Shown: positions 1 to 58,552 of the stretch, piece by piece | How the letters are laid out: the number at the start of each line of letters is the position of its first letter | How positions within the stretch are numbered: the stretch's first letter is position 1 | Source: a virus | DNA: 64,000 bases | Direction: 5' to 3' (one strand) | Virus record (IMG/VR): IMGVR_UViG_3300001847_000440 | Program-made: the position numbers and the translations under genes | Notes under the pieces: model-generated | What the model saw: the letters and a program-made list of their open reading frames with translations, nothing else | What the model was told of the DNA's origin: nothing | Databases searched by the model: none

Positions 1-3000
1 ATCAGAACGTATATCAACTATATTTTGTTTCTGATTAATAAGGTCATAAAAAGCCTGCCCAGTAGTGAGCTGTGTTTTACTAAGAGTTCTTCCTTCTGCA
101 CCTATAATTTCAAGCTTTTTTTGTGGAGAAATAATGTCTCTTATATTTCTAATCCTTCCCCATTCTTCCCAATACTTAGTATTTAGATTTTCAAACCTTT
201 TGTACAAATCTTTTGCATTATTTTGTACATCTGCTATACGTCTATTTAAAGCTGCACCTTCTTCTGTATTTTTGTCAAAAAAATCTACAAAATCAGTTAA
301 ATTACTGTATAATCTCAAATCATCTAATGCTTCTACTACAGGTAAAAGCATGTTATTAAATTCTGATGTTGTTTTTATTTTGCTAAAATCTGTTTCATTA
401 AATATTTTATTTAAGTTATCTACAGACTTTACCATTTCATTATTAAATAACTCAGCATGGTCTAACATAGGTTCAAAAGACTTTGATAGCTGAATCATCA
501 GTATAGCCTTTTGTAAAGTCTTTATTTTATTTTCTCTAACCAGTCTTTCTTGTTCAGGTACTTTTTTCTCTTTACTAGCATTTAATAAACCAGTCAGTCT
601 TTGTACGAGTGTATCTATTTTCTGATCACCACTTTTTTCAGAACTGGTTACATAAGGAAGAAGAAAATCAGTAGTTTCATTTTTATATTGAGTAGTGCCT
701 ATATCCATAGCAAGCACTTTTCCTTCTTCTCCTTTTTTTGAACTATATTTAACAGCTACTGGTACTATACGTACATTTCCTATGTCTTTTATACCGTATG
801 CATTTTTTAAAATATCTACATAGTTCTCCATTTGTATGTCATAAGACTTCTTCATATAGTCTCTAATTGATTCATTTCTTTCAAGTGAACCAATAAACTT
901 CCAATCATAAAGATGTACTTTACCAGATGGCTCTATAGCCATCCAATCAATGGTACCTGCTAGTCCTTTTTTACCATCTATTACTCTATTAGGATCATAT
1001 ACTTTAGTTTCCCACATAAATCTTGTTCCTTCTGGAAACTGATCTACAAGACCAGGTACTTTTTGGTTTATCTCATTTGTATACCCAAGAATATGGTCTT
1101 GTAGTTTATTATAAAAGAATCTGTCATTTTCATCCTTAAACCTTTTTGTGTCTACTTCTTTTACAAATATATTGTCACTATTATCACGGTGTCTAAGACC
1201 TGTTTTTTTATCAAAAGCCCTGTCCATTATATCTTCTATATGACCATGACTTTTTATACCAAAGGCTTTCTTAAGTTCATTTAGAGCAGCTAAAATTTTA
1301 TCTTTTAGGTATTCTTTACTTCTGAATATTTTTTCTAAAAACTTATGAGACAAATCAGTTACTCTATTAGGAATAGTTTCTCCTGTTGCTTTAGTTTTAT
1401 AAAAACTATTACCTTTTGTATCTTCTACTTTATCTAAAGTATTAGCAGAAAGTTTGTTAAAATTTGTTTCTCCTTGTTTCTTTTCATCCTTATCTCTTAA
1501 CTGATAATACATAAACTCTGGTCTAACATAGGACCTATCATTTGGATTAGTATCTCTATAATCCAACTGGTCTTTTTCTCTGGTAAACCACCTTGCTTTT
1601 TCTTCTTCTGGGTTAAGAATGAGTTTACCAAAAAAGATATCCTGCCAGGATGCAAATTCATTTACAGCCCTTCTTTGTTTGTTATCTTCTCTATGAAAGA
1701 AATCAACATTGAACACTTTGTCTGCAGGTGCATTATCCCATTTACCCCTATACACTTCTTTACCTGTAGAATCTCTAAGAACAAGGTCTTCTATCATCTG
1801 AGACCCCCAATCTTTTCTTTTTTTTGCCTCTACTGTATACCCTTCTGCAGGAACCATATAAGCATAAGTACCATAAACAGCATCTGTTTTTTTACTTTTA
1901 CTAAATATACCATTATGAGTAGGTATAGCATTCATACCTTTCATAAAACTATCCATACTTTGTAAGTTAAAGTCTTCTCCAACTACAAAATCAAGATCAT
2001 GTATAGGAGTTTCTGTTGGTCTAAATATAGTTTCTCCCTGTCCTGCAACAGCTAAAGACCCAGATAGTTTAAAACCAAACTCTTTAGTAAATAAATCTAT
2101 TATTTTAGTAGCATGTGCATTATTTGCAAGTGCTTTTCTATAGTTTAGTTCTTCTCTTTTTGGGTCCCCCTCACCAACAAGAGAAGTATCCATTTTTACA
2201 ACAGCATCAGCTATATAAGAAGACATTGAGTGTAACTTCTTATCTGCCTTAAATTGTGCCATTGTTTTATTATCCCTGATAAAACCATCAAAGAATTCTT
2301 TTATTTTGTCTACAAGCTTTTGCCATATATTTTTATCTGGTACATCACCTACTTTCCATTTATTGACAATTGCATCTGCAATAAGTTTATCTATAGCTTC
2401 TTTTTTTACTTGCTCTATATTGTTATAAATAGGCATGTACTTGTCATATACAGACTTAAAAATACTATGATTCTCAATATTGTTAAGCATTTCTCTTATA
2501 ACAGGATGATTTGCTCCCATAAGCATGCTGAGTATATGGGATGACTCTTCGGCTATAGTATCAAGTTTCCGGTCTTTGGAATAGTAAATCATTTTGTTTA
2601 GAATATCAGCCACACCAAGTGTGTCTATACCAAACCTTTTTTTCATGTCTTCTATCTGTTGTGCTTTTACTCCCCAGGTAGACATGTAGTTAAGTAAATG
2701 ATCATCTAAATCTTTATTAGCAGATTGTGTTTCAGTTGAAGATAATTGATGAAACAATCTTTCTTTTCCTACACCTAACTCATGTTTAATAATATCTGCA
2801 GTGTGTGTAGTACGTTCTGTATCAGTAGAAACTATAACAGATATATTTTTAGACTGCAACTCTTTTGCTGTACTAATAGCATCTTGTATTCCTTTTTCTG
2901 TAAGAGGAGTGTTTGCTGTTGACAGTTCTCCTGTAACATTTTTTTGAGACTCTCCATGTCTTATAAGATAGATATTTTTATCACCTACTACCAAATGCTC

Positions 3001-4356
3001 AATATGCCCATTGTCTATAATATTACTATTAAATTTGTCTTCTGGAACATTTTCATCTAAATAACCATTCTCTTTCCAGGTTTTTAAAAGTGATATAGCA
3101 GTACCATGTGTAACTATAGCAGAGTTATCTGGTAAATCGGCAGCAGCAGATAAAAAATTATTAATAGTATTGTTTTTAAAGCTGCTAAAGTTTTCCCCTT
3201 CTTGTATATCTCTTATTTCATTTACTTTCTGTTTTAATTGTTTCTCATCATAAGATCCTTTAGCAAGTTCTTCAGTTACTTTTGTAAAAGGATTGCCTTG
3301 AAAAAAGTCTTTTAAGAATGACTTTATTTTATCCCACCAGGTTTGTGTTTGTTCAAGTAATTTACTTGTAGTGTCTGATGAACCTTCTAGTTGTTCTGCA
3401 TAATACTCATTAAGTACTTTACCTATTGTTTCTTCTTTTAGTTTTGTTACATTTAATTTACCATCGGGTGTTTGATACTCTTTTAAATTACCATATTGTG
3501 CTACTACATCTTCATATAATTTATAAGAACCTATTCTGTTCATCATTTGAGAATAAAGTCCTGGGTTTTTTTCTTTTACTATTTGAGTAACAATATGCAT
3601 ACCTGCTTCTCCAATAGCAACATTTTCATTTCCATCTACAACTCTTACAATTCTATTTACTACATCTACAGATTCATTGGCATCAATAAAATTACCCATT
3701 TCATCTTTTATACCTTTTACTGTAGCATCATAGTCTACTCCCATGTTTTTAAAATGTTGTTTCCATTTGTCAACAGTTACAGTAGAAAGCTCTCTTGCAT
3801 TTTGTCTGTCCTTTTGGAAAAAAACATTTTCAGGATCAACTTCAATTCTTAATCCAGTTGAATCCATATGTACTTTTGCACCTAGTGACTCAAGATATCT
3901 TTTTCTTGCACCTGCTTTTTGTATATCACCAAGTACATCCATATCTTCTTTATAAGTACGTTGAAAGTCCCCCTCAAACCTCTTTGTAAAAAATGTACCT
4001 TCGTTAAACAAAGATTTGTTCTCACCTTTGTCATTAGTAAACATACCATTTCTTAGGACAGGTTCATCATTTTCGTCTTTTACACCATTTTTAAACCATG
4101 CATCAAAAGAATCTGTTTTTGTCTTAATATACAAAGCAAGTGCTAGATGCCTATTATTATCAACATCACCTACTATATCATTTTGCCAACTACGAAAAGA
4201 CTCTCTCAAATTTTCAAGTATATCTTTTGGAAGACTTGTTATAAAGTCTAATACCTGTTTGTAAAGATTTGATTCTTTACCATTTTTGGCATAAACAGTA
4301 CTAACCATTTTGCCACTTTCTCTAACAAGCCCACATTCTGAACCCCAGATTGCCAT
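1..4356 (-). CDS. Giant polyvalent virion/ejection protein, 3'-truncated (>1452 aa): two zincin-like repeats, permuted His-phosphatase, nucleotidyltransferase, PD-(D/E)XK nuclease
   Basis: Hand translation from ATG at 4356 (MAIWGSECGLVRESGKMVSTVY...), 1 nt after the stop of 4358..4756, stays open to base 1 (...NIVDIRSD). It is absent from the ORF track, presumably because it has no stop in the window. Motifs: AIGEAGMH, IVTHG...LIRHGES, IAEESSH, LSGSLA...HDLD, AGTIDW...YDWK. Confidence 0.9.
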   Translation of the reverse strand, partial: MAIWGSECGLVRESGKMVSTVYAKNGKESNLYKQVLDFITSLPKDILENLRESFRSWQNDIVGDVDNNRHLALALYIKTKTDSFDAWFKNGVKDENDEPVLRNGMFTNDKGENKSLFNEGTFFTKRFEGDFQRTYKEDMDVLGDIQKAGARKRYLESLGAKVHMDSTGLRIEVDPENVFFQKDRQNARELSTVTVDKWKQHFKNMGVDYDATVKGIKDEMGNFIDANESVDVVNRIVRVVDGNENVAIGEAGMHIVTQIVKEKNPGLYSQMMNRIGSYKLYEDVVAQYGNLKEYQTPDGKLNVTKLKEETIGKVLNEYYAEQLEGSSDTTSKLLEQTQTWWDKIKSFLKDFFQGNPFTKVTEELAKGSYDEKQLKQKVNEIRDIQEGENFSSFKNNTINNFLSAAADLPDNSAIVTHGTAISLLKTWKENGYLDENVPEDKFNSNIIDNGHIEHLVVGDKNIYLIRHGESQKNVTGELSTANTPLTEKGIQDAISTAKELQSKNISVIVSTDTERTTHTADIIKHELGVGKERLFHQLSSTETQSANKDLDDHLLNYMSTWGVKAQQIEDMKKRFGIDTLGVADILNKMIYYSKDRKLDTIAEESSHILSMLMGANHPVIREMLNNIENHSIFKSVYDKYMPIYNNIEQVKKEAIDKLIADAIVNKWKVGDVPDKNIWQKLVDKIKEFFDGFIRDNKTMAQFKADKKLHSMSSYIADAVVKMDTSLVGEGDPKREELNYRKALANNAHATKIIDLFTKEFGFKLSGSLAVAGQGETIFRPTETPIHDLDFVVGEDFNLQSMDSFMKGMNAIPTHNGIFSKSKKTDAVYGTYAYMVPAEGYTVEAKKRKDWGSQMIEDLVLRDSTGKEVYRGKWDNAPADKVFNVDFFHREDNKQRRAVNEFASWQDIFFGKLILNPEEEKARWFTREKDQLDYRDTNPNDRSYVRPEFMYYQLRDKDEKKQGETNFNKLSANTLDKVEDTKGNSFYKTKATGETIPNRVTDLSHKFLEKIFRSKEYLKDKILAALNELKKAFGIKSHGHIEDIMDRAFDKKTGLRHRDNSDNIFVKEVDTKRFKDENDRFFYNKLQDHILGYTNEINQKVPGLVDQFPEGTRFMWETKVYDPNRVIDGKKGLAGTIDWMAIEPSGKVHLYDWKFIGSLERNESIRDYMKKSYDIQMENYVDILKNAYGIKDIGNVRIVPVAVKYSSKKGEEGKVLAMDIGTTQYKNETTDFLLPYVTSSEKSGDQKIDTLVQRLTGLLNASKEKKVPEQERLVRENKIKTLQKAILMIQLSKSFEPMLDHAELFNNEMVKSVDNLNKIFNETDFSKIKTTSEFNNMLLPVVEALDDLRLYSNLTDFVDFFDKNTEEGAALNRRIADVQNNAKDLYKRFENLNTKYWEEWGRIRNIRDIISPQKKLEIIGAEGRTLSKTQLTTGQAFYDLINQKQNIVDIRSD
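690..1260 (-). other. PD-(D/E)XK nuclease domain (RecB/Cas4-like)
   Basis: WETKVY...LAGTIDWMAIEPSGKVHLYDWK...YDIQMENY matches the E, D, DxK and QxxxY motifs. Boundaries approximate. Confidence 0.8.
1600..2150 (-). other. Pol-beta-like nucleotidyltransferase domain
   Basis: FKLSGSLAVAGQGETIFRPTETPIHDLDFVV (GS...DxD), with a later VDFF as candidate third acidic residue. Boundaries approximate. Confidence 0.6.
2770..3200 (-). other. Circularly permuted histidine phosphatase (PGM-like) domain
   Basis: GENFSSF...AIVTHGTAISLL...IDNG (canonical C-terminal half) precedes IYLIRHGES...PLTEKGIQDA...STDTERTTHTA (canonical N-terminal half). Confidence 0.8.
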
Positions 4357-4756: not shown

Positions 4757-7132
4757 TTATTTACCTTTTTTCATTTTGTCAAACTCTTCTTTAGCTTTGT
4801 CTATACCTGATTTGTCTATCAGTATGCCATAGCCTTTTACCTCATCTGCTATTTTTTCCATTTGTGATTTACAATCCTCAAAAGAATTGCCGGCCACTGC
4901 AATACACCCTACTTCTGGTTCCGGGAAGTTGTTAAGATTTAGAGTAGTGGGCAAATCATCTACTTTCATAGCATTAACAAGACATATATTTTCTTTGTAT
5001 TTTTCAGGAAAGTACAAAGTCTGGTAGTCTGCCAGATAGTTATCAGATTTTATACTCAGATATAATCCACATTTTGCTTTTGGTTTAATTTCAATTATCT
5101 CACCATTAGCTATTCCCCATACAATTTCTCCAAGATTATCAAACATTAATGGGTACAATGGACTTGGTGGAAGAGGAAGCCGACAGTTACCTGACCAAGT
5201 AGGTTTTCCTTGTCTTCTTACATAAAGAGTTTCATTTGGTACATTAACACAATAAACTAATCCATTATAGTCTATTTCTTTAATATACCTGTCTTTTCTT
5301 GCACCTGTCTCAAACCAATATTCTTTTCTTGAGCAATACTCTGTTATTATATAACAATCATGGTTTCTTGTATAACTTTTCTTTCCTTCTATTTCCATAA
5401 GAGTACCTTTACCTTTGTTACCCTTTGATATATTTGCACAAGATCCTATTTTTAATATACACTCTTGAAGATCGTCAGCCATTCTTTTTGAAGTAGTAAA
5501 ATACCTTTTTCTAGAAATAACTCCATTTTTATACTCAGTATTTCCATCACCTGCTCTATAAGCATCAAGAAAAGCTTGTATTACAGGTATATCTGCTTGT
5601 TTTATGTAGTCTGGTATATATTTTTCATTACATTTGCCAAACTTTTTAAGTTCTACAAGTAATTGAGTACTTTGTATCTGGAAACCAGTATTATGCTTTC
5701 TATAATTAAAAGGTAATCTATTAAGAATCTCTTCTATAACATTTCTTTGGTCTTTTTTATGTTGTGTTATTGTAACATGACCATGACCAATACTCCCCTC
5801 AGATAAATACCAAGCAAGTAAACTTGCCCAATCTTTCATTTTTATCTTTAAAGCAATATTATGATAAACTTTATCACAAACTTTATAACCACCTGCTCTT
5901 GAGCTGTTCCACTCCCATTCTTTATGGTATTCTGGTAGCTCAAAATACTCCTCATTATACCCTATCCATTTTGCTGTCCTGGGTATATATCCTTTATCTT
6001 TTAAACTATCTGCTCTTTCCCTAATTATATTTTTTTTGTGCCTGTCATAGTGGATAATAGTATGGTTGGGTGTAACTAATTGATCATAAGATTTTTTATC
6101 ATTAGTCAGATTTATCATTTTTCCACTATAAGGATACTGAATATAACCACTTGCATAATGGTATTCTATTTGCTTTGTATCAGTATTTAAAGTTGCAAAT
6201 TTGTCTTCTGCTATACAATCTTTAAATAATTTCCAACCAGCTTCAGTAAGAACTTCTGTATCCTCAGAAAAACAAGTCATATCTATGAGGTAATTTTCAC
6301 CTCCTTTTGTAGTACGTACTTCAGTAGAGAAAAATCCTTTATAGCCATATTTTTTCATAAGAGGTGCTATAGCATCAGTTGTTTTCATTACCCCAGGTGT
6401 AAGATCTGAGTAGTTAATCAGCTCTCCATAGTAGGCTTTGTTCTTTATCTCTGTACCTGCTAACACTGTTTTGGGGTATTTACCATCTACTGTGTAGATA
6501 TCAATCCCTTCTTCTACTATGGCATCTATAGGGTCTTCTATGATGAACTCTATAGTTTCAGCCATAGGGCCCATCTGATGCTCCATTTTGTCAAGTATTA
6601 CACATGATACCTGGTATGTGTCATGATGAAAGCTTTCTACCAACCTACGGTAGCTAGATACTTTCACATACTTATTCTCCTCCTTCATAAGAGTTTCTCT
6701 TAGAGCATTCATTCCCACAACCCTTTTCATTGGATTAACATCCATGCCAAGAGCTTTGAACTGCTGCTTACACTGCCACCTGTCCAGCTCAAGAGTCTGT
6801 CCTTTACCTGATCCACACACCGGATAACCAAGTTGCCTCAGGTGCTCCATAAGGTCTCCTTGGTAGCAATCTGTGAACAGAATAATATCTGCCTTGTCAA
6901 GATTGTCAAAAAAGCTACTGACCATTCTAAATGGTTTACCATTATAGCTGTCTAACATCTTGTTGTTTTTCCACTCACTACCAACCCTGGCTTTATCTGG
7001 TTTGGGAAAACCAGAATAGTCCCACGGCAGGTAATACAGAACTTCTTTGTAATGATCAGCCAAAGCAAGACAGAATGGAAAAAAGGTACCACTGTCAAAA
7101 CACAAAATTGTTTTATTTTTAGTATTTGCCAT
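4757..7132 (-). CDS. PurD-fold ATP-grasp ligase (428 aa after splicing) interrupted by an intein
   Basis: Extein resembles the GARS/ATP-grasp fold: TILCFDSG, GYPVCGSGKGQTLELDRWQCKQQF, YVKV, FIIEDPID, GYKGFFSTEV...YLIDMT|CR. PurD substrate motifs (QDHKR, GPNTGGMG) are absent. Confidence 0.8.
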   Translation of the reverse strand: MANTKNKTILCFDSGTFFPFCLALADHYKEVLYYLPWDYSGFPKPDKARVGSEWKNNKMLDSYNGKPFRMVSSFFDNLDKADIILFTDCYQGDLMEHLRQLGYPVCGSGKGQTLELDRWQCKQQFKALGMDVNPMKRVVGMNALRETLMKEENKYVKVSSYRRLVESFHHDTYQVSCVILDKMEHQMGPMAETIEFIIEDPIDAIVEEGIDIYTVDGKYPKTVLAGTEIKNKAYYGELINYSDLTPGVMKTTDAIAPLMKKYGYKGFFSTEVRTTKGGENYLIDMTCFSEDTEVLTEAGWKLFKDCIAEDKFATLNTDTKQIEYHYASGYIQYPYSGKMINLTNDKKSYDQLVTPNHTIIHYDRHKKNIIRERADSLKDKGYIPRTAKWIGYNEEYFELPEYHKEWEWNSSRAGGYKVCDKVYHNIALKIKMKDWASLLAWYLSEGSIGHGHVTITQHKKDQRNVIEEILNRLPFNYRKHNTGFQIQSTQLLVELKKFGKCNEKYIPDYIKQADIPVIQAFLDAYRAGDGNTEYKNGVISRKRYFTTSKRMADDLQECILKIGSCANISKGNKGKGTLMEIEGKKSYTRNHDCYIITEYCSRKEYWFETGARKDRYIKEIDYNGLVYCVNVPNETLYVRRQGKPTWSGNCRLPLPPSPLYPLMFDNLGEIVWGIANGEIIEIKPKAKCGLYLSIKSDNYLADYQTLYFPEKYKENICLVNAMKVDDLPTTLNLNNFPEPEVGCIAVAGNSFEDCKSQMEKIADEVKGYGILIDKSGIDKAKEEFDKMKKGK
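5186..6274 (-). mobile_element. Intein (363 aa) with LAGLIDADG homing endonuclease
   Basis: N-terminus CFSEDTEVLTEAGW; LAGLIDADG blocks LLAWYLSEGS and FLDAYRAGDG; C-terminus VYCVNVPNETLYVRRQGKPTWSGN followed by extein Cys+1. Confidence 0.93.
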
Positions 7133-7138
7133 AATATT

Positions 7139-7702
7139 TTATAATAAGTAACATATTAGTCTTTGCAATATTAGTATTGCTTTTTTCATCTTTTCCATAG
7201 ACAACTCAGCTTTACCATGCCAGTTATCATTTGGGCACTCTATTGGTATTATAAAAGAAAGGCCGGGTATTTTCTTTTCTGCCCACTGATCCATTTCATC
7301 TGCTTCTTCAGGGTCCCCGGTATACTCACAAAAGTAAAACTTAAATCCTTCCCATTCAAGAGTATTAAGTATTTCTGCTATTCCTTTTCCGTATAAATTC
7401 TCAATACCAACATCTACATTCTTATACCTATCACCAGCACACACATCTACATTGATAACAAAATCTTTTTCCGGATCAAGCTCAGGAAAATCTACAGCAT
7501 AAGCAAACTCCTCATGATTGTTGTGGAAGATTTTTATATCACCTACAGATAAAGCATGTTGTATAGATTGGTTAGAATAAACAGCACTGTACATACACAG
7601 CACACCTGCAAAGTTATCTAATAGACCTTGCAGGGTGCCTTTATTATTTGTAAGAGGAATATCTGTTCTTACTACATCTGTATGTGCTGATAGTACTAAC
7701 AT
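7139..7702 (-). CDS. Minimal clan-MH (M28/M42/M20-like) dizinc peptidase/amidohydrolase
   Basis: Candidate metal ligands appear in the expected order: SAHTD, GLLDN, HEE, VNVD, NWH. The start overlaps the RNAP stop by 7 nt. Confidence 0.8.
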   Translation of the reverse strand: MLVLSAHTDVVRTDIPLTNNKGTLQGLLDNFAGVLCMYSAVYSNQSIQHALSVGDIKIFHNNHEEFAYAVDFPELDPEKDFVINVDVCAGDRYKNVDVGIENLYGKGIAEILNTLEWEGFKFYFCEYTGDPEEADEMDQWAEKKIPGLSFIIPIECPNDNWHGKAELSMEKMKKAILILQRLICYLL

Positions 7703-10700
7703 GTTTTACCCTTCTGTTTAACTTCATCTTTAAGTTTGTCTGCCTCTGTCTTTTCAGAGTTTACTGATATTCTCTTTATACGTGATTCTGAGCCTGTATG
7801 GAAAATAGTATATTTAGCACCTATCTCATTAAGGTATTCAACAAACTTAGAATCTACACCTGGCATATCACCTACTACAAAAGATGCACCTCTTGAATGA
7901 GCAGCATTAATATCGTATTTAGTAGTACTATTAAGAGGTTTATTACCAGACTCTGCATTTCTAGCAAGCATTATTACTTTAGCTTCATTTACATTGACTG
8001 CAACACCTTGTTTGTTATTTTGTGGATTACCACGTAACACCTTATTTTTTTGACTATTATCAGATATTGTGTTCCAAGATGTTTCTGTAGATGTTTCACC
8101 TATTCCTTTAGTTCTAAGACTTTTCATTGAGTCATCTACAGTTGTATATTTTACTTCACCTATAAAACCATCAGATACCTGTCTCATAGCTGCATCTTTC
8201 CCATCTCCTTGTGGAGTACCTTTACCTGCAGTACTGTACCCACCTTTATAATCAGGTAAAGTACTATTAATAGCTGTACCTGCTGCAGGGAGATTTACTT
8301 GTGGCCTTGTTGCTTTTGGTACATCAGGTGAGTCAGAACCTAGATACTCAATGTTAGATTTAGGAAGATTTACTTGGTTTATTGCACTTTGTCCCTCTGG
8401 ATTTGTAGCTTCTCTTACCCATTTATCTGTCAGTTCTAGTGCTGCATATCCTCTATTTAATACAGATGGTCTTGGTTCTTCATAGTGTTCTTGTAATGCA
8501 TTACCATCACCCCATGGATTAATTTCTTTATAGGCATATACTGGATTACCCCTTTTATCATAAGTTATTACAAAAGGACTCTCCCCAGATTCATCCATTA
8601 CCTGTTGAAATAATCTTGTACGTACAAAAGAATAATCCTTCTTTTTAGCCATTTCATTTTTTTCTGCTTTAGTATAAGCAGTACCATCTGGCTTAGTAAC
8701 TTGATCAACTATTTTTACAACTGGATATCTACTATTTGCAGAAGCTGCACTTACCTTTAGTATACCAGGTATTTCATAGCCTTTATAAGCAGGTTGTGCA
8801 AGTACTTTCTTTAAATAGCCTTCTATTTTAGAATCATAATAAAAGTTATATTCAGTAGAAAAAGTCTCATAGTTAAAGTATCCTTGTATCTTTGGTACTA
8901 TATCAGAATCTCTGTAATTATTTCTATAAAAAGACATTGTCTTTTCAAAATTCATAGCTACTGGACTTTTTGGGTCTTTCATGATATCTAACACAGGTTG
9001 TACATACTTTATCCAGTCTTCATTAGGTATCATTTTGGCATAAGATTCTCTTGTATCTTTGACACCTGATTGTAAAAGTGCTGTATATAATATTTTCTTG
9101 TATAGTTCAGCAGTATTTGGATTATCTCTTAATTCTCTAAATGCATCTGTAATAGAATCTGATTCTAATGCATTATCAGGTTTCATTATAGTAGTCACAT
9201 TTTTTACAGCCTCTGGGTTAGAAGTTAGTTTCACACCAATAGAACCTAATCCTTCTGTAAGAAGAGCTTTAAGGTCTCCTTTTATGTTTGGGTTTCTTCT
9301 GATTTCTCCTAGTAACCTTGCTGTATTTGTCTTAGGATCAACCATTAATTCTTTTATACTTCTATTAAGAGGTTTAAAATTTCTTTCACCCACTGTTTCA
9401 ATAGCAAAGTTGATATATGTTGATAATATATTATTCATAATCTTTGCTCTTTTATCATCTGGTAAAAACTTATTAAAATCAGTAAATACCCTTGACATTT
9501 TTTCTACTACTTCTGCAGCACCAAGAGGAAGCATTTTATCTATTGCTCTCTTTACCTCTATAAGATTATTCAATATAACAGACTGCAGATTTTTTCCATC
9601 TTTAAACATTGCTACAGTTGTACCAAGTAAACCTTGTTCTTTAGCTACTCTATTTCTTTCTTGTTTAAGAACAATATTATTTCTACTTGTATTCTTCATA
9701 TTGTTCACATTATTGCCCATCTGTTCCCTCAAAGAACCACTTGTAGCAAGAGTAGTATATTTAAGATATTCAAAAAGTACTTGTCTTTGAAACTCTCTTT
9801 CTGCTTCATTCATTTCAGACATTTTTACTCCTCTACCTGTAAGTTCTAATCCATTGTATAATTCTTTAAGAGTAAACATTTCTTCACCAGGTGCAAGATC
9901 TGATCTTCTTGCAGTCATTTCTTCTTCACCTTGGTCTTTATATGTTGCTGAAAGAGTTCTTGCTATTATATCATCTCTTTTTTCTGCTACATCAGGGTCT
10001 ATACCTTTTAGAGTTTTATTTATTTCTAATTGTTTTATATATTCCTGTATAGATGGCTGGTTCATAAAAGTAAAGACATACTCAGGATCTACACCACATC
10101 TGCCTAAAAATATAGACGTAGATAAAACATCTTTGTTTTTCATTAACCTTATAAGCCACTTGTTTTTTACACCATCTACTGCACCATTTATAAGTTGAGA
10201 AATAAAATCAGATATGTAATTACCTATCCTGTTTTTTGAACCAGAATATGTAGTTACCATTCTGTCACCACGTTTTAACTGAGCATGTGGTAAATATATT
10301 TTAAAATCACCTAAAGATTTCCTTTCATACTCACTTGCAGTACCATTATCTCCTACTTCTACATAAGTACCCTGCACCTGTATATGTCCTGTGTTACCTA
10401 TAGCTGACATACCTACTACAGGACCTTTAAGATCAAGGTAATCCTGTCTTTCATTTACCAAATACATTATATCAGATAAATTGCTATAGTCAAAACCTTT
10501 ACTTTCATCTATAAGATTGAGAGCTTTATTGATTTTTTTCTCTATTGCAATCATCTCATCAGAATTATTTGGAGTAACCAACTGCTCATAGTTATCCGGA
10601 TGTGTAATAAGACGTTCCATTGTTTCAAAATACTTATTTTGAAGAGCTCTTTCACTATTAAGTTCCCAAGGATCTTTTATACCTTGTTCTTTGATACGTT

Positions 10701-13700
10701 TTTTAAATCTTTCAAAACTTTCTCCTTTAGCATCAAGAGCAGTTTCAAGTATCTCCTCTCTGTTCTTCTCACTTATAACACCTTGTTTAACAAGTTTATC
10801 TATTTTTTCCTCCTGTTCAGGTAAGTCTCTTTCTCTTTGTTCTTCTTTTCTTTGTTCCCAAATACGTTTTAATCCTTCTTCTGAAGAGATATCTTCTACA
10901 AATTCTATATACCTTGGGAGACCATTTTCATCTATAGTAAAGTTATAATTGTAAGTACCCATTTTGTCAATGTCAAAGTCAATACCTGCTTTTGCAACAA
11001 GTTCTGATGGTACTATCATTGTATCACCCATTGCATTAGGAGTAAAAAGTTCACTTTTTTCAAAATCAATCTTACCATTTTCCTTTAAAACTTTTTTGAA
11101 TGGTACTATTCTTACAGCATCTAAAGAGTTCATACCCTGAGTAGGCACACGAAAACCAACAGCAGCAAGTAATTTATAACCTTCTTTTGTAAGCTCACCA
11201 TCTTCAGTCATCAAATGTTTCATAAGTTCTGCATTTGAAGGAAGCTTTCTACCTGTTTTAGCTGCCCATTTTTCAAGAGCTTTTCTAAAATGATTAGGAG
11301 CATATACTTCCATCAAAGAAGTTCCTTTCTTACCAGTAACAGGATCTACCTGATCAGGTGTATAGAACTTAAGTTCAGATGATGATATAAACTCTTTTCC
11401 ATCTTTATTTATTATCTTACGAAATCCTTTTCTTTCCCAAAGAGTAGAACTGTTAAGTATATTATCAGTACCATTTAGTTTAGGACTAACTACATTTTTC
11501 TGTACATGAGACCATATAATATTGCTTAATTGTTCATAGTTAGGCATTGCTTCAATATCATACTTAAGTTTTTCTTGTCCTGTAAAAGAATCATATTCCC
11601 AATCAAGTGCTTCTGCAAGATTATCAGGAAGATCACGTTTAGTAATCTCATTTTTCAAAAAATCTATTACTTTTTGTTTATCAGAAAATTCATACTCATA
11701 ACCTCCTTCAGTTTTTACTTTATTAATACCAAGATTAAATAAAGTTCTATCTACACCACGGTTTGATATTTCTGATATAGCTCTGTTATTATCTTGAACA
11801 AGTGCATATTTTTCAGATGCTTCTCTTTTCTTTTCTTCTGTACCAAGGGCTTCCCATTCTGCTAACTTAGTATCATAATCATCTGTATCAATATCATAGA
11901 AGTCTGTAGGTAATCCATGTGACATTGCATTAGCAATAGCTATTGATTGAGCCTGAGAACCAATTGTTTTACCAGTTTTATCTTTAGCTGTCTCTACAAT
12001 CTTATTTATATCTTCCCAACCAATAGACTGAGCATGTTTATTTATTCTACTTTCATCTAAAGAACTAAGATTAAATATGCCTTTGCCTTTCTCTATTTTA
12101 TATAACTCAGGTGAGTCAGGAAACTTACCTACTTTTTCAGTAGACTCCGGTCCAAGATAACCAATCTTATTATCATGTGCCCACCAATAAAGATCTTCCA
12201 TTCCTGTGCCTTCTACAACATCATAACCCATTCTCATAACTGAGTTTTTTAATGAAAATGGAATATTCTGGTCCTCTAGTTTTAACATACCTACAGCTAA
12301 TGGTTTTTTTGGCTGACCAGTTGCCCATGTTTGAGGATTACCTTTATCTCTTATTTCCTCACAGGCTTTTCTAAGTTCTGGTCTTAGAGTCTTCTTTTCT
12401 GTCCTTCCATTTCTACCATTTGCATCAGCAAGTATAGCAATTGCCCTATTATACTGTTCTTGTGCCTCATCTTCATCAGTCCATGGGTCACTAGACCTTA
12501 TTACATATTGTTTCCAGGCAAAATCAGTAAGTATTCCACCACCATCCATATCTTCTATAGACTTGTATGGTTCAGCTAATTTTTTACCCTTTTCCTCTCC
12601 ATATTTCTCTATAAGTTTTTTCTCTATAGTACTATGGTAGGCAGAGTATATACCTTTGTCATGATTAAATATAAAACACTTTAACTCATCTGATGAACTT
12701 ACTTTACTAAACTCTCCATCATTAAGTACTACACCTCCTATTGTATTTTGTGTATTATTATACCACGTGTTAAACTCAGGGTCTCCAGAATAAGTACTCT
12801 CTGTACCTGATTGGTATAGTTTATGACGTTTTGTAGGATCACTCATCTCATACCATGGCCCATAAAACATTCTAGCTAATTCATTATTATGGAAGAACAG
12901 ATTCAGGTTTGCATATTCAAGAATATTTTTGACATTCTTTTCTGTAAAAGTATCTGTACCATACTCCATTCTTTCTGTAAAATCATTATTAATGTTAAAC
13001 CACTTATAGATTTTACCATCTTTATTTTCACCTGCTACACTGAGTAATCTACGGTCTACTAAGAAATCAAACAATGAGTTCATTCTTGCCTCTCTATCTT
13101 TCCAAAAAGCATCTTTTACTCTTTGCTCAATAGTTCTTGTTGTACCAGGTAAAATAGACTTCATAAAGTCTTCTGTGGTAACATCTTTTGGGTCTCTTGC
13201 ATAATCAGTTACAACATCCAGCAATGGTGTTGATTTACCATCTTTACCTAATTCTCTTGAAAGTATTTTTTTGAATACCTGTAAAGATGTACCATTCTTT
13301 TTAGATTCTTTAGTTACAATACGTTGATTGTTTGTATTCTCTTTAATAAGTTCAATTTCTTCAGACAGATATTGAATAGCTCTATCCTCTACTTTCTTTT
13401 TGTAAGATCCAGACTTATACTCATCTTTTGTTATAAAATGAGGTACCCTTAATCCTGACTCATTGCCTGAATCAGCAGGTATAAAATTGTAGAATATACC
13501 CATGCCTTTTTGTCCAAGAAGCATGTTAAGAGTAGTCATCATCCTACTACCTCTATTAAGAGTCTTGTTTGATGTATTATCTGTATTATCATTTATTAAA
13601 CCTTCTGTGACAGTCATCACAAAAGATTGACCTTCTTTTACTTCTTCTCTTATTGTACCATCTTCTTTAAATAATGGTCCTCCCTTTTGTATCCAGTAAT

Positions 13701-16700
13701 TATTTTTACTCCAGGTATCAGCAAATAATCTGGGTTGCAAATCTCGAAGTTTATCTATTGTACCTGCTTGTATTACACTTTGTACAAGTCTGTTAAGACC
13801 ATTGTACATCACATGATTCATTACAGCATTACCTTCAACATTTCTATGTGAAGTAGGCATTCTTAAATGTTCTGCTTTTGCTATAAGAGAAGTAAGTCTA
13901 TTAAGAGGCCCTTCCATATCAAAAGAAGCCTTTGTAATAAACATATCTGCTTTAAGCATAGAGTAAACATCACCAGCAGCTTTTCTTAAGTCTGCACCTT
14001 CAGACTTATTAAGTTTACTAAATATTTCATTTGTAACAGGTAAGTGAACACTTCTTAAAAAATCTATTACACTTGCATTATTAGTTGTGTCTACAGGTTT
14101 TATAGCTTTTTTATTAAGCTGATAGCCTGAATTTACATCATCTACTCTTGTAAGATGTGGACTATTTCTTATGTTAGAAAACCATTCTGCTCTTATTAAT
14201 TTTGTATCTGTATCAATATTAGAGTCAATTATATAGGTTCTACCATCTTCATCAAGTTTAACAGATACATAAGCAGGTTTCATTTTAGATGCCCACTTAG
14301 TAAACGATATTCTTAATCTATATTCATCTCTTGTTAATTGAGAAGCAGGTTTACCATATACAGCATCATATATTCTTACAAGTCCTGGTTCAGCAGCAGC
14401 CATTTCAAACATTCTCCTCTGCATTGCTTTTTTATCAGTAATACCTGCAAGTCCATTAAGTACCTTAACCATCATTTTTCTTGCATTTATTAAAGTAGGT
14501 AATTGCAAGTGGGTAAGATCAAACTGTATATTGGCTGTGTCTAAAGGTTGCCCAAAGTACTTATTTATATTTGGGTTCTTAGAGCCCTCTTTAGGCTGAG
14601 GAGAAAATGCAAATAATAATTTTACTTCTATAGGGGCACCACCAATAGCATCAATTCTCATATACTCGACATCATACCCCCTGTCTTTTACATCTTCTAC
14701 ATGATAGTCTTTGGTGTCACTATCTTCTTTATGATGCTTATCTTGTTGATCAAGCATATCTTCAGCCAGTGCTGCTTCTATAGCTTCCTTAGCTTTTTTG
14801 TTAGACATTTTTTCATCAAATACAATTTTGTACTTTCTGAAAAACTCTTTCATACCTCTTACTACTTCAGGTTTAAATGCAGTATTATCCTCATTAGTAA
14901 GCTTTAACCAAGTAGTAAGAGTACCAATTCTTCTTTGGTCTGCCTGCATTATAAGATCTTTCTGCCTATCATCAGCTTTAGTAACTCTAATGATATCCGC
15001 AGTTTTTGTAGCATTGTTATCCTTACGTGCTTTTATTTGTTCTGGTGTAAGTATTTTTTCTATTTCTGCTAATCTAATATTATGTATATTATCTTGAGCA
15101 AGTGGATTAGTATATTTATCTTTCATCCACTCATAAACTGGTTGGAACATATCTGATAATATAGTACCCTCTCCTACTTTCACAAGTCCACCACTACTTC
15201 TTCTTAAATTATCTATCATCTTCCATGCTATACCATGTATTGTAGCTTTCTTTTCCACTTCTGTCATACCTGCAATTTCCATTAAGACAGGTTGATCAGA
15301 TGTTCTTACAGGTAACTTGAAATTTTTGTAGTAACCAGATTTTACTCTATTAAATAACTCCTCTTGTGTAACTTTCTTGCCAAATAATTTTTGAACAAAA
15401 TTCCATAGTCTTCTAAAGAAATTAGTTGCTTTAGATGGAGAGCTAAAACGTGGGTCTTTATTTCTAAACAACCTAAAATCTTCAGCCATTTTTTCTCTTC
15501 TATCATATTCATTGGCTATGTACACTCTTTTACCATCTTTCTCAAAAAATCTTCTTCCACCTTTTTCGGTTTTAACTTCAATATCTTTAGGTGTACCATA
15601 ACTTATTGTTCTACCAAACCTATCTTGGTATGTTCCTTCTCTTGAGAAAAACTCTTCTTTTATGTCTTTAAGATCAGATGGAGAAAGAAAAGAGTCTTCT
15701 ACACCATGCCATTGCTCATGAAAACCTGCACCTTGTGGTGCTTCTTTTGCAACTTCAATATAGTTATTTAAGAATCTACCAAAGGCATATGTACCACTAC
15801 CATCTTTGATAATATGAGGTACTTCTTCATATGAAAACTGTGGTGTAGTTGCTTCTATAGCCAGCCTCTCCTCTTCTCTGTTACCTGGTTCATATAGTTC
15901 TGTTTCACCAGTTACAGCCATTAAACTTCCACCTACTCTACTAGAGTCTGCCTGAGCATCATACATATCAGCTAGTTCACTGGCACTAACACCATAATCT
16001 TGTGTGACTACATCAGCTACTACAGCACCTGCTACATCTACATCAAATGGAGGAGGCTCAGGCATTGGTTCAGGTGCAAGATTTGCAGGTGGTGTAGTTA
16101 TTATTTCAGCACCTTTAACCTCTTCTTTAGTACCTGGTTTATCCTCTGCCTCAAGTACAGATTTAATAATTTTACTTCTTCTTATTGTTTCATTTAAAGG
16201 GTCTCCATACTCTGATATATCTAAAACATTACCACTTTTATCTTTTAGTTCTCTTACTGCAACTATTAATTTACCTTTTGATATTTCTGCAATAAAAGTA
16301 TAAGTATTACCTTGGTCATCAGTATATGTATTAGGAGTTTTAAAGTCATAGACAACTCCTTCTTTTTTGGTAGGTTCCTTTTGTCCAACAGGTGCACCTG
16401 GTTGTTTAGTTTCTTCTGTTTTTTTTCCAGTCTCTTCTGGTCCAAACTGTGCACCTTTTTCTACACCTCCTTCTGTTGGTTCTTTTTCAGGAGCAGGTTG
16501 TTTAGCCGGTTTCTTTAAAGAAAAGAAATCATCCTTAAAATCAGGTACAAAATATTTATTAACAAGAGGACCTTCAAATTCTGCAGGTTCTTTCATGTTA
16601 ACAGTAAGAGGTATGTTTTCACGTTTACCATCTTGATCAGAAAGAAGATACTCTTCATAAGAATTCCACTTCTTTAAAGATGGTTTGCCTTCTTTGTCTA

Positions 16701-19700
16701 CAGTAAAACCTACAGGTATCTCACTCCAGGTTTCTCCCTTTTTAGATAGATTAAGGGCATTAGAAGATACACTATGAAAAGCACCTGACAACCACTCTTT
16801 TATTATATCCTTACTTCTCTCAACTTCTTCTGGAATAAAAGGTATCATTGTTACTTTCTTTTCACTTCCTATTCTGAAAGCAAGTACTTTACCCATATTC
16901 TTATCCTGAGATAGATACAACTGGTTATTTGCTATACCTGTTTTTTTATCTGTCTTAGAACTAAAAAACAATACTGAAGATAGATAATTAGTATATATAC
17001 TATCTACTTCACCATCTGCACGTTGATAATAATTATCAACCATTGCAGCTATTACTTTATACAAATGGTCTACCTGACCGGGTACTTCTCCAAACCTTAT
17101 TCCATTAAGAAAGGCAACATTATTGTTATTTACAAAAAGAGGATATCCAAGAGGAAAGTTAATAAGGTTATCACCTACTTTTACTGAGCCTACTCTTTTT
17201 CCCTCTAAACCAATAGTAGGAATTTCTATTTTACCACGTAAATCAGTGTTTGCTCCTAGTTTGGCTTTTTCTATTGATGTCTTATAGACTTCTCCTTCTC
17301 TATCATTTACAATACCCCTTGACTCTGAGTATTCATAATAATTAGGTTCCCCATCATAAGATAGTATTTTACCCCTCATCTCTTCTGCTTCTTTTAGAAG
17401 CATTGCTATTTCCTCTGCAGTAGCATCATATCTATGTTTATCCTTTCCTTCAGCCGTTACCTGATTTCTCTCAGGTTCTGCAGTCTCCATAAAACTGAAA
17501 ACTGCTTCATCTGTTGATTGAGTTTTATTACCTACTTCATTAAGTATCTTACCATTTTCATCTACATAATGAAATTTACCATTCTCTGCATCATGATATA
17601 CATGAAACAAAGCAATAGAGGCTCTTTTGTTATCAGTAGCATTATTTACAGTATCTGTACCAGAAGTATATGTTTCAGGTAAAAACTCTTTGTCAAAAAA
17701 TTTAGACTGATTGTTTCTGGTAACAAACATTACCAAAAGCTTACCATCTTTTGGAACATAGTCTTTAGGATTAGCATCTTTTGGAATAGGAAACCCAAGA
17801 TTACCATTTCTTATAAAACGGTTAACTCTATCTGACCAATTATTAAATTGAGCAGGAAAAGATCCCTTGGGCCAACCATTAGCAGGTCTTTGTTTGTGAG
17901 ATGGGTTTACTGTAGAATGAAATACTGTCCACACTGATTTTTTAGAAGAAGACCATTCTTCATTTGCAGCTTTTTGTGTTTCTTGAGGTGTGCCAACTAT
18001 GCCTTCTGCATTCTCACCTGATTGTATTTTTCCTTGTAAAGCAGCAAACTTTGCTTTGTAAACAGGACTATCAAAAAGTAATCTACGTTTTTCTTCTTTT
18101 ATGTAATCATCCCATACTTTCTTAAACCCATCATAGATTTCACTATCAATATTGTATTGTTTACCAAGCTCCTCAATATCACTATGAAGTTTATCTATTT
18201 CTTGTAATGCATTATCAAGATCTCTTCTTTTTGCAGGTATCTCCAGTTCTTCAAGTTCATCTATTTTCTTGAGTATATCCTGCATGTCTGAGATATAAGG
18301 AGCAGCTCCTTCTTCTCCAAGCATCTCTCTAGCCTGATCAATTTTTTCTGTAAGTGTATTACGAAATTGATCTAGTTTACTTATGTCAAAAGGTATATCT
18401 GGATACTTAGATTTAAAATCATCTACATAAGACATAAAAGTATCCATAGTACTTTTAATAACATCTCTTACCTTATCAACAAAAGAAGATAGTTGTCCTA
18501 TTTTTTTAGTAGAGTCTTCTATTGCAATTAGAGCTTCTGTACGAGAATCATCTATTGCATTCATCAAACGAAGTGGATCAAGAGACTCTTGGTAGTTATA
18601 GTTAGACAAATAATCTATCTCCTGTTCTAAATCATCTACTCTTTTTTGAATATTTTTTATATTATCTTCAGTATTATTTACAATCCTAGTGAGGTCTCTT
18701 ATAACCCCCATCTGTGTTTTAAGAAACTTCTTTGTTGCCTTTGTAAGATTTCCCCTGTTTTCTCTTGCTGGGTATTTATCAACTTCTTCCTGTGCTTTTT
18801 TTAGTTTTTCCTGTGCATCTTCTAATTTAAGCTTATTGTGTTCAAGGTCTTCTTTAGCTCTTTCATGTAAAGCTTTCTTATTTTGCAGTATTTCATCTAC
18901 TGCAATCATCCTATTAAGAAGACGTTCTTCTCTTCTTATTCTCTCTTTTTCTGTAGCTTTAGCCTCAATCCACTCCTTACTTGCTTTAGTTATTTCACCT
19001 ACCTGTTTTACTATAGGTTCTTTATGGTACAAAAGCTCTCCTTCTTTAGGTTTACCTTCTTCATCATAATACCAACCACTTCTTACAGGCTTACCTGTTT
19101 TTTTGTCTAAAATGGGTCTAGGAGAAAAGTCTTCTCTTTCTATTTCAATAGGTTTTCTTTTAGTGTCATCAGGTACAAACAGTAATTGATCCTTGTCACT
19201 ATCAAACTCAAGTCTACCTTCTATCTCACCACCTTTTTTCTTACCAAGGTTGTAAGTGAACTTATTATTGATGTTGTCAAAATAGAACTTTGCTGTTGCA
19301 TTTTCAGGTTTATTTAAAGAAGTTTCTGAACCTAATTTATAATTAGCAAATTTCTCTTCAGCTATATCTTGTTCACCATCTTCTGTACGAATAGTAATAA
19401 ATCTTTTTCTATCTTCTCCTTCACCTGTTATCTTCTCTCCTACTACTGTAAACTTAGAAAAAGCCCTAAATCTTTCAGTCTTACCATCTTCTGTTTTACC
19501 TGGTACAATCCTTGATCCTGCATAATAAGTCTCTCCTATTTTAAGATCAATTTTACCACCGGCATTCTTTGTTGTAACTTCTTTTATGTAATTACCAGGT
19601 ATAGTATCTGAGTCTTTAGCAGTTGTACCAACTCCAGGTACAACAGTATCTTTTACTGCATCAGAATATAGTTCTGGTTGCTTTACTAATTTCTCATATT

Positions 19701-56986: not shown

Positions 56987-58552
56987 TTAGAACTGTGGTA
57001 CCTGCTCAATAAGTGCTGTACGAGTGATATCTTCAATAAAGACATCATAACGGTCCTTCATCCAGATCTTATAACCTGGGAACATGTTTGCTGAACTCAT
57101 ACCTTTTGAAGCAGCATGGCCCATGTGATGATAAGTACCATCTATATAACCCCAAGTCATTGAAGGAGCAGATGATGGTCTTACTTCCCGGATGTTGTCA
57201 GATGCCATCTGATCACCCTGTGGTGAAACATCAAACACCATAAATACTGGTGTAGATTTTTTGTTCCTACCATATTCAGAGTTAGTCTGAGGCAGGTCAA
57301 GTTCCATCAGGTGAGACACTTCAATCCTACCGGTATCCATAGTTACCATTGAATCAAATGCCCAGTTGATTGTCATGTTCTGGCCTTTACCTTCAATGAA
57401 ACGGTTGTCAGCTATGATTGTGAAACCAGCTTTCAACAGGTCATCTTTGGCAGCTGTACGGAATACCTCTATACCGGCTTCATTGGTAAACAGTTTCACC
57501 CTACGGTTCTTCATGTCTTCCCTACGGTAGAACAGGTCACCAAATACATTACGGATAATGTTGATTGAGAACTGGCCGGCATTATACTGCTCTAGGTTAC
57601 CATAAGCCCTCATACGTGGGTAAACACCCATAGACAGCTTCTTCATTTCCTGGTTGCCACCAAAGGTACGGGAAGTACCTCCCTGTGCCCAGATCATTTT
57701 CTTAACCTTCATGTCCAGCATCCTTTTACGGAGTTCCATTTCAATGAATGGTTCCCATGCTGTAACATATTTATGCTCACCTTCTTGGTTACGTACTTTC
57801 TTTGAGTACATAATCAGGTCAATCATATTGCCATCACGGTCTTGGCCCCTCTTTGCAGAGTTAGCAATCTTTGTGTCAGCCCAGTCTGTAACTGTATGTT
57901 CAACCATTGAAGCAGAGCCCAGAGATTCATACAAAGTGATTTCATCACCCAATGTACCAAGGCCGGAACCCCTTTCATCATATTCACCGGTTGCATTATA
58001 CAGGAATTCAAACTCACGGCCTTCTGCCAACCATTGTGGATCTACTGATGTAGTCAGTGGGTTGGTAGTTACAAGCTGCATAGTGTATTTCCAAGCCCGG
58101 CCATAAGGAACAGGATCATTGATAACAATGAACTGCTGACCATACATACGGTTAGGGCTGATAACGTCATTGATAAAGAATTCTTTTTTGTCAAACACCA
58201 TTTCAAATGTCTGGCCATCTATACCAATATTGCTGAGAGACAGAGTGCTATCCGGAACTTCTACAAGCACAGGGAACTGGTAAGGAACATTTACTTTCCA
58301 TTTCCAGTAATCAGTAGCTTTGTCAATGTAGTAAGGTTTTGACTTCATGATCATTTGCAGGAAGTCATTGGAATACAAACTTGTCTGAGTGTACAAACTA
58401 ATTATTTTTTTGTCGTAGTCTGCAGGAGACTCAGAATGCAGCATCTGGATATGGTTAGAATCTGTAAACTTTCCCAGAGCCCTCTTGTTCATTGAGGAGT
58501 ATCTTGTTGCTATGTATCCTGAACTATAGCCAGGTATCTGTTGTAATGCCAT
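56987..58552 (-). CDS. Major capsid protein (521 aa), crAss-like HK97 fold
   Basis: LYTQTSLYSNDFLQMI...WKWKV...; position after scaffold/portal; MTWGYIDG and GY.IWMKDR.DVFIED motifs. Confidence 0.9.
   Translation of the reverse strand: MALQQIPGYSSGYIATRYSSMNKRALGKFTDSNHIQMLHSESPADYDKKIISLYTQTSLYSNDFLQMIMKSKPYYIDKATDYWKWKVNVPYQFPVLVEVPDSTLSLSNIGIDGQTFEMVFDKKEFFINDVISPNRMYGQQFIVINDPVPYGRAWKYTMQLVTTNPLTTSVDPQWLAEGREFEFLYNATGEYDERGSGLGTLGDEITLYESLGSASMVEHTVTDWADTKIANSAKRGQDRDGNMIDLIMYSKKVRNQEGEHKYVTAWEPFIEMELRKRMLDMKVKKMIWAQGGTSRTFGGNQEMKKLSMGVYPRMRAYGNLEQYNAGQFSINIIRNVFGDLFYRREDMKNRRVKLFTNEAGIEVFRTAAKDDLLKAGFTIIADNRFIEGKGQNMTINWAFDSMVTMDTGRIEVSHLMELDLPQTNSEYGRNKKSTPVFMVFDVSPQGDQMASDNIREVRPSSAPSMTWGYIDGTYHHMGHAASKGMSSANMFPGYKIWMKDRYDVFIEDITRTALIEQVPQF

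Follow-up and report, generated by a model that had tools for sequence, protein, structure and literature searches.

A circularly permuted histidine phosphatase domain predicted within a large multidomain phage protein

A large multidomain protein, P0002, encoded on the minus strand of IMG/VR virus record IMGVR_UViG_3300001847_000440, contains at amino acids (aa) 372 to 530 what structure prediction indicates to be a true member of the branch-1 histidine phosphatase (phosphoglycerate mutase [PGM]-like) superfamily that folds on its own and is both circularly permuted and pared down. The stretch of DNA that was analyzed is 64,000 nucleotides long and is referred to throughout as the window. Translation of the minus strand from position 4356 to position 1 gives a single open frame with zero stops, and the full length of 2,293 aa comes from the cluster representative of P0002, which is 100% identical to the open reading frame (ORF) in the window. 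The plus strand has no ORF of at least 60 aa across positions 2770 to 3200. Coordinates of the domain, its structural elements, and the neighboring genes are collected in Table 1.

Swapped order and predicted fold of the domain

A sequence-only reading of the window had proposed that the two halves of a PGM-family phosphatase are exchanged in this protein, and the motifs that it quoted are all present at the positions it gave, with GENF (aa 387 to 390) and THG upstream of RHG, PLTEKG, and STDTERT. The permutation itself is confirmed by profile matches. Pfam His_Phos_1 (PF00300) matches the protein with 58.2 bits (E value, 1.1e-15; cut-off, 21.7) in two stretches of swapped order, with aa 462 to 529 corresponding to profile positions 1 to 69 and aa 384 to 426 to profile positions 113 to 156. 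Most of this score is carried by the RHG half, and the upstream stretch on its own gives a PF00300 E value of 0.0044. When a profile of the seven closest proteins was compared with PhoE (PDB 1EBB), positions 90 to 153 aligned with PhoE residues 3 to 67 and positions 14 to 54 with PhoE residues 117 to 158, the part running from the GE motif to the THG strand. With a profile of 88 family members, both halves were significant against PhoE and again swapped (positions 152 to 215 with PhoE 3 to 67, 6e-14; positions 30 to 114 with PhoE 73 to 161, 1.5e-8). Equivalog models of NCBIfam (GpmB, CobC, PspA, SixA, and dPGM) gave no match above their curated cut-offs (best, 51.9 bits versus 261), with all matches confined to about model positions 1 to 70, and the permuted unit is covered by no Pfam or NCBIfam model. 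SixA (PDB 1UJC) has the canonical order, and assignment of the domain as a SixA orthologue was rejected, as the NCBIfam sixA model matched at 26 bits, far below its cut-off of 74.5, and over the first half only.

The same swapped order is found in six homologues of 40 to 54% identity from separate assemblies and recurs in independent assemblies from JGI, ENA, NCBI, and Logan. Because the order is shared by these six homologues and by about 88 cluster representatives, it is neither a matter of chance nor an assembly artifact. That an assembly error or a frameshift produced the arrangement has a practically negligible probability, given that the frame is uninterrupted and that the four sources of assemblies agree.

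The two halves were expected to pack into one PGM fold, and the predicted structure agrees. AlphaFold2, supplied with an alignment of 88 sequences, models aa 362 to 550 as one compact domain with a mean predicted local distance difference test (pLDDT) score of 90.5 and a predicted template modeling score of 0.84, and pLDDT exceeds 95 across the junction of the two halves. The elements of the core follow one another as helix 3, strand 4, helix 4, strand 5, a hairpin, strand 1 with the RHG motif, helix 1, strand 2, and helix 2; the canonical element order and six-stranded sheet are thus not found in aa 372 to 530, for which four strands are predicted. In the SCOP description of the fold, the sheet has the order 324156, with strand 5 antiparallel and adjoining strand 1. 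Since strand 5 lies beside strand 1, a direct hairpin between the two is a natural way to close the permutation. One antiparallel strand in the sheet is also described for canonical histidine phosphatases in PMC12051542.

Structure comparisons were made with sequence-order-dependent aligners, which find the halves only. Model residues 98 to 169, the RHG half, superpose on residues 2 to 74 of 1H2E, 4IJ5, 9MMH, and 6S2Q with a root mean square deviation (rmsd) of 1.3 to 1.5 Å over 72 residues (1.5 Å for 1H2E), and model residues 13 to 134 superpose on residues 73 to 203 of 3HJG_B with an rmsd of 2.7 Å over 85 residues. Foldseek returned no end-to-end match in the PDB, AFDB clusters, or BFVD (best PDB E value, 0.02; template modeling [TM] score, 0.2 to 0.3), which is to be expected of a permuted topology and is no argument against the fold. 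An ESM Atlas cluster of 215-aa His_Phos_1 proteins aligned over 136 residues (TM score, 0.62) and is probably another permuted group, and a feature search of the ESM Atlas gave generic His_Phos_1 clusters only, with scores below 0.9.

For both halves, the best matches, in sequence as well as in structure, are the broad-specificity phosphatase PhoE of Geobacillus stearothermophilus (1EBB and 1H2E) and the CobC alpha-ribazole phosphatases (6NRU and 3HJG). They have in common with the window domain the RHG nucleophile motif, the pocket Asn, the second Arg, the second His, and the GE-x-F helix cap. However, PhoE and CobC have the canonical order, six strands, a lid of about 35 residues, and Glu83 as proton donor, whereas the window domain is swapped and joined by the hairpin of strand 5 and strand 1.

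Break point, reduced subclade, and family spread

The sequence-only reading had also placed the break in the lid region, and this part of it needs correction. In the wider permuted family, the domain begins with an equivalent of strand 3 and a T-x-D-x-G...E-G motif, which aligns to L-R-E-I-H-L-G-D-W-E-G of PhoE, and a short lid and then the GES helix follow. Because the domain starts with this strand, the alignment places the permutation point of the wider family in the loop between helix 2 and strand 3, before PhoE residue 73, and not in the lid, which is kept in short form. This break point is new here. The protein of the window falls into an 11-member subclade (FastTree support, 0.999) from which strand 3, the Glu, and the lid segment are missing altogether, as is strand 6, so that the model has a four-stranded core. 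The subclade, also new here, is a further reduced, four-stranded form minus strand 3, the lid, and two arginines. Upstream of the core, the AlphaFold2 model of aa 305 to 550 contains helices only (pLDDT, 60 to 77). At the other edge of the domain, we considered F535-H536-Q537 as a vestigial strand 3; in an hhalign comparison without realignment, the alignment of the RHG half stopped at the loop before strand 3, the motif is disordered in the AlphaFold2 model (pLDDT about 52), and the sequence that follows it is variable or inserted.

To survey the family, a profile of the subfamily was searched against 1.84 billion cluster representatives, and the best 150 matches were examined. About 88 of these 150 align in a single stretch across both halves in the permuted order, in proteins ranging from 176 to 5,004 aa. 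Some family members carry Kinase-PolyVal, ART-PolyVal, GNAT, Zeta_toxin, ParB_N, or PDDEXK domains within 330 residues of the phosphatase. Among the short matches, P0113 is the only small gene verified as complete: it is free-standing, encodes 192 aa, occurs on contigs of up to 59 kb, ends just after helix 2, and is immediately followed by an ORF longer than 3,100 aa. From this gene it follows that the permuted unit is an autonomous domain, and in some phages the permuted module is a separate gene inside the same kind of giant-protein block. Several other short matches that appeared free-standing were rejected as fragments, such as P0048 on a 608-bp contig and P0030, which shares a cluster with a protein of 4,277 aa.

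Among proteins with the canonical order, those closest to the wider permuted family across both halves are small phrog_12933-type proteins (about 190 aa), such as P0055, P0069, and P0104. Both groups share a Glu-less L-R-[TP]-W-[DN]-L-G motif in place of the Glu, and both have W...G after the second His; unlike the permuted family, the phrog_12933 type has the normal order and is free-standing, at about 185 to 225 aa. A further new observation is that these phrog_12933-type relatives already have a replacement for the canonical Glu. Another match, P0012 (1,161 aa), contains four consecutive histidine phosphatase matches, some of which span the border between a C-terminal half and the N-terminal half that follows it, and tandem arrays of this kind are the expected intermediates toward circular permutation. 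The presence of canonical-order relatives, tandem arrays, the full permutation, and the reduced form suggests a possible route of duplication and truncation. In a FastTree phylogeny of permuted members and canonical relatives rearranged in silico, the key node had a support of 0.43, and eight canonical rows were aligned over the RHG half only; for these reasons, no conclusion is drawn on a single or multiple origin of the permutation.

Catalytic residues, genome context, and probable role

The residues on which catalysis would depend are retained in the window protein (R466, H467, N473, R515, and H417), in agreement with the sequence-only reading that the RHG His, the Arg of S..RT, and the second His are kept. 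In the model, R466-H467-G468 stands at the end of strand 1 (aa 460 to 466), the place of the nucleophilic His. R515, H417, and N473 align to R59, H151, and N16 of PhoE, and the second Arg, second His, and pocket Asn are R58, H149, and N15 in the numbering of PMC12051542. All 88 representatives have RHG and R515, whereas H417 is present in 97%, N473 in 98%, and G387-E388 in 91 to 93%; RHG, N473, R515, and H417 are also invariant among members of the subclade that are only 40 to 54% identical. In the subclade, D383 never varies and E388 hardly does, and on the strength of this conservation both are candidate acids.

The window is a single-strand block in which the terminase, portal, head, tail, and giant ORF genes all lie upstream of the phosphatase gene on the same strand. 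Following the head gene are tail and virion proteins, an ORF of 4,927 aa, ORFs of 187, 791, and 132 aa, and then the phosphatase gene. The 4,927-aa ORF has no Pfam or PHROG match and contains a G-I-D-F-D-I-D motif that resembles the metal-binding motif of crAss-type virion RNA polymerases. In a 107-kb relative, this order is kept, with an ORF of 4,962 aa, then 187, 426, and 129 aa, and then a His_Phos protein of 1,846 aa, after which come small genes and a divergent recombination and replication block. As the gene syntenic to the 791-aa ORF encodes only 426 aa in this relative, an intein has been inserted in the phage of the window. Judged by gene order, the phosphatase gene closes a crAss-like structural and cargo operon.

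Two known groups of proteins offer a comparison. Polyvalent proteins (Iyer, Burroughs, Anand, de Souza, and Aravind, 2017; PMC5512222) are very large and multidomain, as are members of the permuted family, and the Kinase-PolyVal, ART-PolyVal, GNAT, Zeta-toxin, and ParB_N domains found beside the permuted phosphatase are hallmark domains of such proteins; the same paper mentions neither a phosphatase nor a permutation. P0002 is itself a very large protein with several unrelated effector-type domains, those besides the phosphatase being recognizable as motifs only, and it has no Pfam PolyVal domain above threshold. The gp47, gp49, and gp50 proteins of PhiCrAss001 are likewise large and encoded at the end of the structural block beside the giant RNA polymerase, and mass spectrometry of virions of that phage detected the large RNA polymerase-associated proteins encoded in the corresponding position (Bayfield et al., 2023; PMC10172136). 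Overall similarity to these cargo proteins is very low. Within P0002, aa 548 to 690, in the first part of the insertion that follows the phosphatase, show 27% identity to a gp49-like "RNA-polymerase subunit" of crassvirus cr85_1 (E value, 2e-6). From the position at the end of the operon, the PolyVal-type neighbor domains in the family, and this weak gp49-like match, we infer by analogy that the virion probably carries the protein and delivers it along with the DNA.

With somewhat more confidence than doubt, we read the domain as an active permuted phosphomonoesterase that forms one module of a polyvalent cargo-type protein delivered to the host. R466, R515, H417, and N473 would bind the phosphate of a phosphomonoester, whose phosphoryl group would pass to H467 and then be released by water; the acid would be a residue other than the usual Glu. 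The loss of strand 3, the lid, and strand 6 would leave the phosphate pocket open. SixA is the minimal core of the fold, and insertions into that core are thought to set substrate specificity (PMC12051542). By analogy with SixA, which acts on a protein, an open and lidless site would favor a macromolecular or bulky phosphorylated target over a small metabolite. Going further, the domain might be an injected counterdefense or takeover enzyme that strips phosphate from host macromolecules as the DNA enters, an extension that we consider quite unlikely as it stands. Its candidate targets would be phospho-histidine or phospho-Ser/Thr proteins of signaling or kinase-based defense, or phosphorylated nucleic acid ends; the permutation might then have arisen as an aid to refolding or threading within an unfolded cargo polypeptide, and the two subclades, with and without strand 3 and the lid, might differ in their targets.

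Several observations weigh against an active, delivered phosphatase. The Glu or Asp proton donor after strand 3 (Glu83 in PhoE) has no counterpart in the window protein, as the sequence-only reading had noticed; the whole segment is gone in the subclade, and the wider family has Thr at this position. Two arginines that are kept in about 90% of the family are replaced in the subclade, here by N396 and S479, and this loss could reflect a changed substrate or a weakened activity. The C-terminal 1,334 residues of P0002 match only one crAss-like hypothetical protein (E value, 3e-4), and the major head protein has one weak match in 50,697 GenBank phage records (Leptolyngbya phage Lbo-JY46, 27% identity); the phage lineage is poorly represented among sequenced isolates and remote from them. 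The grounds for packaging, finally, consist of synteny and analogy.

The absence of a Glu counterpart, of the strand 3 and lid segment, and of two conserved arginines would fit a pseudo-enzyme that folds without turnover and serves as a binder of phosphate or a phospho-ligand or as a structural spacer. We consider this unlikely, because the invariance of RHG, R515, H417, and N473 at such low identity would be difficult to account for unless catalysis is under selection, proton donors differ among histidine phosphatase families (PMC12051542), and D383 and E388 remain available as acids. A very improbable explanation of the swapped order is that it is the remnant of a tandem duplication, in which a first copy has decayed to its C-terminal half, next to which stands the N-terminal half of another copy, the two forming no single active site. 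Arrays such as that of P0012 show that tandem copies do occur, but the model packs both halves with high confidence across their junction, neither an RHG half upstream nor a second half downstream can be detected, the free-standing P0113 corresponds exactly to the permuted unit, and the catalytic residues of both halves are conserved together.

Activity as an enzyme is also compatible with a protein that is not packaged and acts late in the infected cell, for example in nucleotide or nucleic acid metabolism or in virion maturation. This we hold to be somewhat improbable while giving it real weight: the evidence for packaging is indirect, the gene borders the small-gene and replication region in the relative, and motifs like those of nucleotidyltransferases and PD-(D/E)XK nucleases occur in the same protein. 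However, the gene has the same orientation as the head, tail, and giant RNA polymerase-like genes and comes after them in a conserved order, members of the family are fused to domains that define polyvalent, virion-delivered proteins (PMC5512222), and the proteins in the corresponding position of PhiCrAss001 are virion proteins (PMC10172136).

Other parts of the protein and significance of the family

The insertion of about 400 aa that directly follows the phosphatase has LFHQL and MYYQL at its borders, with a YYQ motif at its end. At aa 766 to 792 it contains a G-S...D-L-D motif like that of pol-beta-type nucleotidyltransferases. Farther along, a PD-(D/E)XK nuclease-like motif (D...D-W-K; aa 1134 to 1154, positions 895 to 957) lies in a block that is conserved among homologues and has no Pfam match above threshold. 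The motifs FFQ (aa 179 to 181, positions 3814 to 3822), FHQ (aa 535 to 537), and YYQ (aa 949 to 951, positions 1504 to 1512) lie at module borders. Polar and variable sequence follows each of them, and the first two are conserved in homologues. Motifs of the form [FY][FYH]Q number 4, versus 0.83 expected (shuffle P, 0.005), and they could be processing sites or linker motifs.

Table 1. Features of the phosphatase protein, its domain, and neighboring genes
Feature	Residues (aa)	Position in window	Strand	Basis or remark
ORF, first 1,452 codons of the 2,293-aa multidomain protein P0002		1..4356	(-)	Frame runs off window start
Helical region upstream of core	306-371	3244..3441	(-)	In place of wider-family strand 3 and lid; family alignment, AlphaFold2 model
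Permuted histidine phosphatase core	372-530	2767..3243	(-)	AlphaFold2 model; swapped-order Pfam and PDB profile matches
Canonical C-terminal half, encoded first	386-457	2986..3201	(-)	GE motif (E388), T416-H417-G418, strand 5
T416-H417-G418	416-418	3111-3103	(-)	
Canonical N-terminal half, encoded second	460-527	2776..2979	(-)	R466-H467-G468, N473, R515
R466-H467-G468	466-468	2961-2953	(-)	
N473	473	2940-2938	(-)	
R515	515	2814-2812	(-)	
Helix	371-379			AlphaFold2 model
Helix	390-407			AlphaFold2 model
Strand, then H417	412-416			AlphaFold2 model
Helix	418-429			AlphaFold2 model
Short helix	439-444			AlphaFold2 model
Strand	452-457			AlphaFold2 model
Two-residue turn joining strands	458-459			AlphaFold2 model
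Strand, then H467	460-466			AlphaFold2 model
Helix	487-503			AlphaFold2 model
Strand	507-510			AlphaFold2 model
Helix	514-527			AlphaFold2 model
Unstructured low-confidence tail	after 527			AlphaFold2 model, pLDDT about 52
F535-H536-Q537, C-terminal domain edge	535-537	2746..2754	(-)	F and Q invariant in seven closest homologues
Insertion of about 400 aa right after phosphatase	540-950	1507..2739	(-)	Lacking in 6/6 homologues (alignment)
791-aa ORF		4757-7132	(-)	Intein and LAGLIDADG homing endonuclease domain (LAGLIDADG_3, E value 3.6e-8; Intein_splicing, 5.5e-5)
4,927-aa ORF		7696-22479	(-)	G-I-D-F-D-I-D motif at aa 3834-3840
Major head protein		56987-58552	(-)	After portal
Portal		59955-62636	(-)	After terminase
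Terminase		62651-63985	(-)	First in block
P0113-type 192-aa permuted phosphatase gene		(contig L001, 6001-6579)		Starts at stop of 595-aa gene; ends 10 nt before ORF of >3,100 aa

The histidine phosphatase (PGM-like) fold is among the best-studied enzyme folds, and we found no description in the literature of a natural circularly permuted histidine phosphatase or PGM fold, nor anything pairing crAss-like phages with a histidine phosphatase or phosphoglycerate mutase. Standard annotation sees half of the domain, so that such proteins are labeled as partial PhoE or PGM matches, if they are labeled at all, and the second catalytic His can be missed. For the study of the enzyme, the domain provides a defined unit of 160 residues for expression and assay. 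For protein evolution, the family suggests a possible route that leads from canonical relatives through tandem arrays and full permutation to the reduced four-stranded form. Members of the family occur commonly in giant phage proteins for which delivery into the host is probable, and they add a phosphatase to the known repertoire of such proteins.

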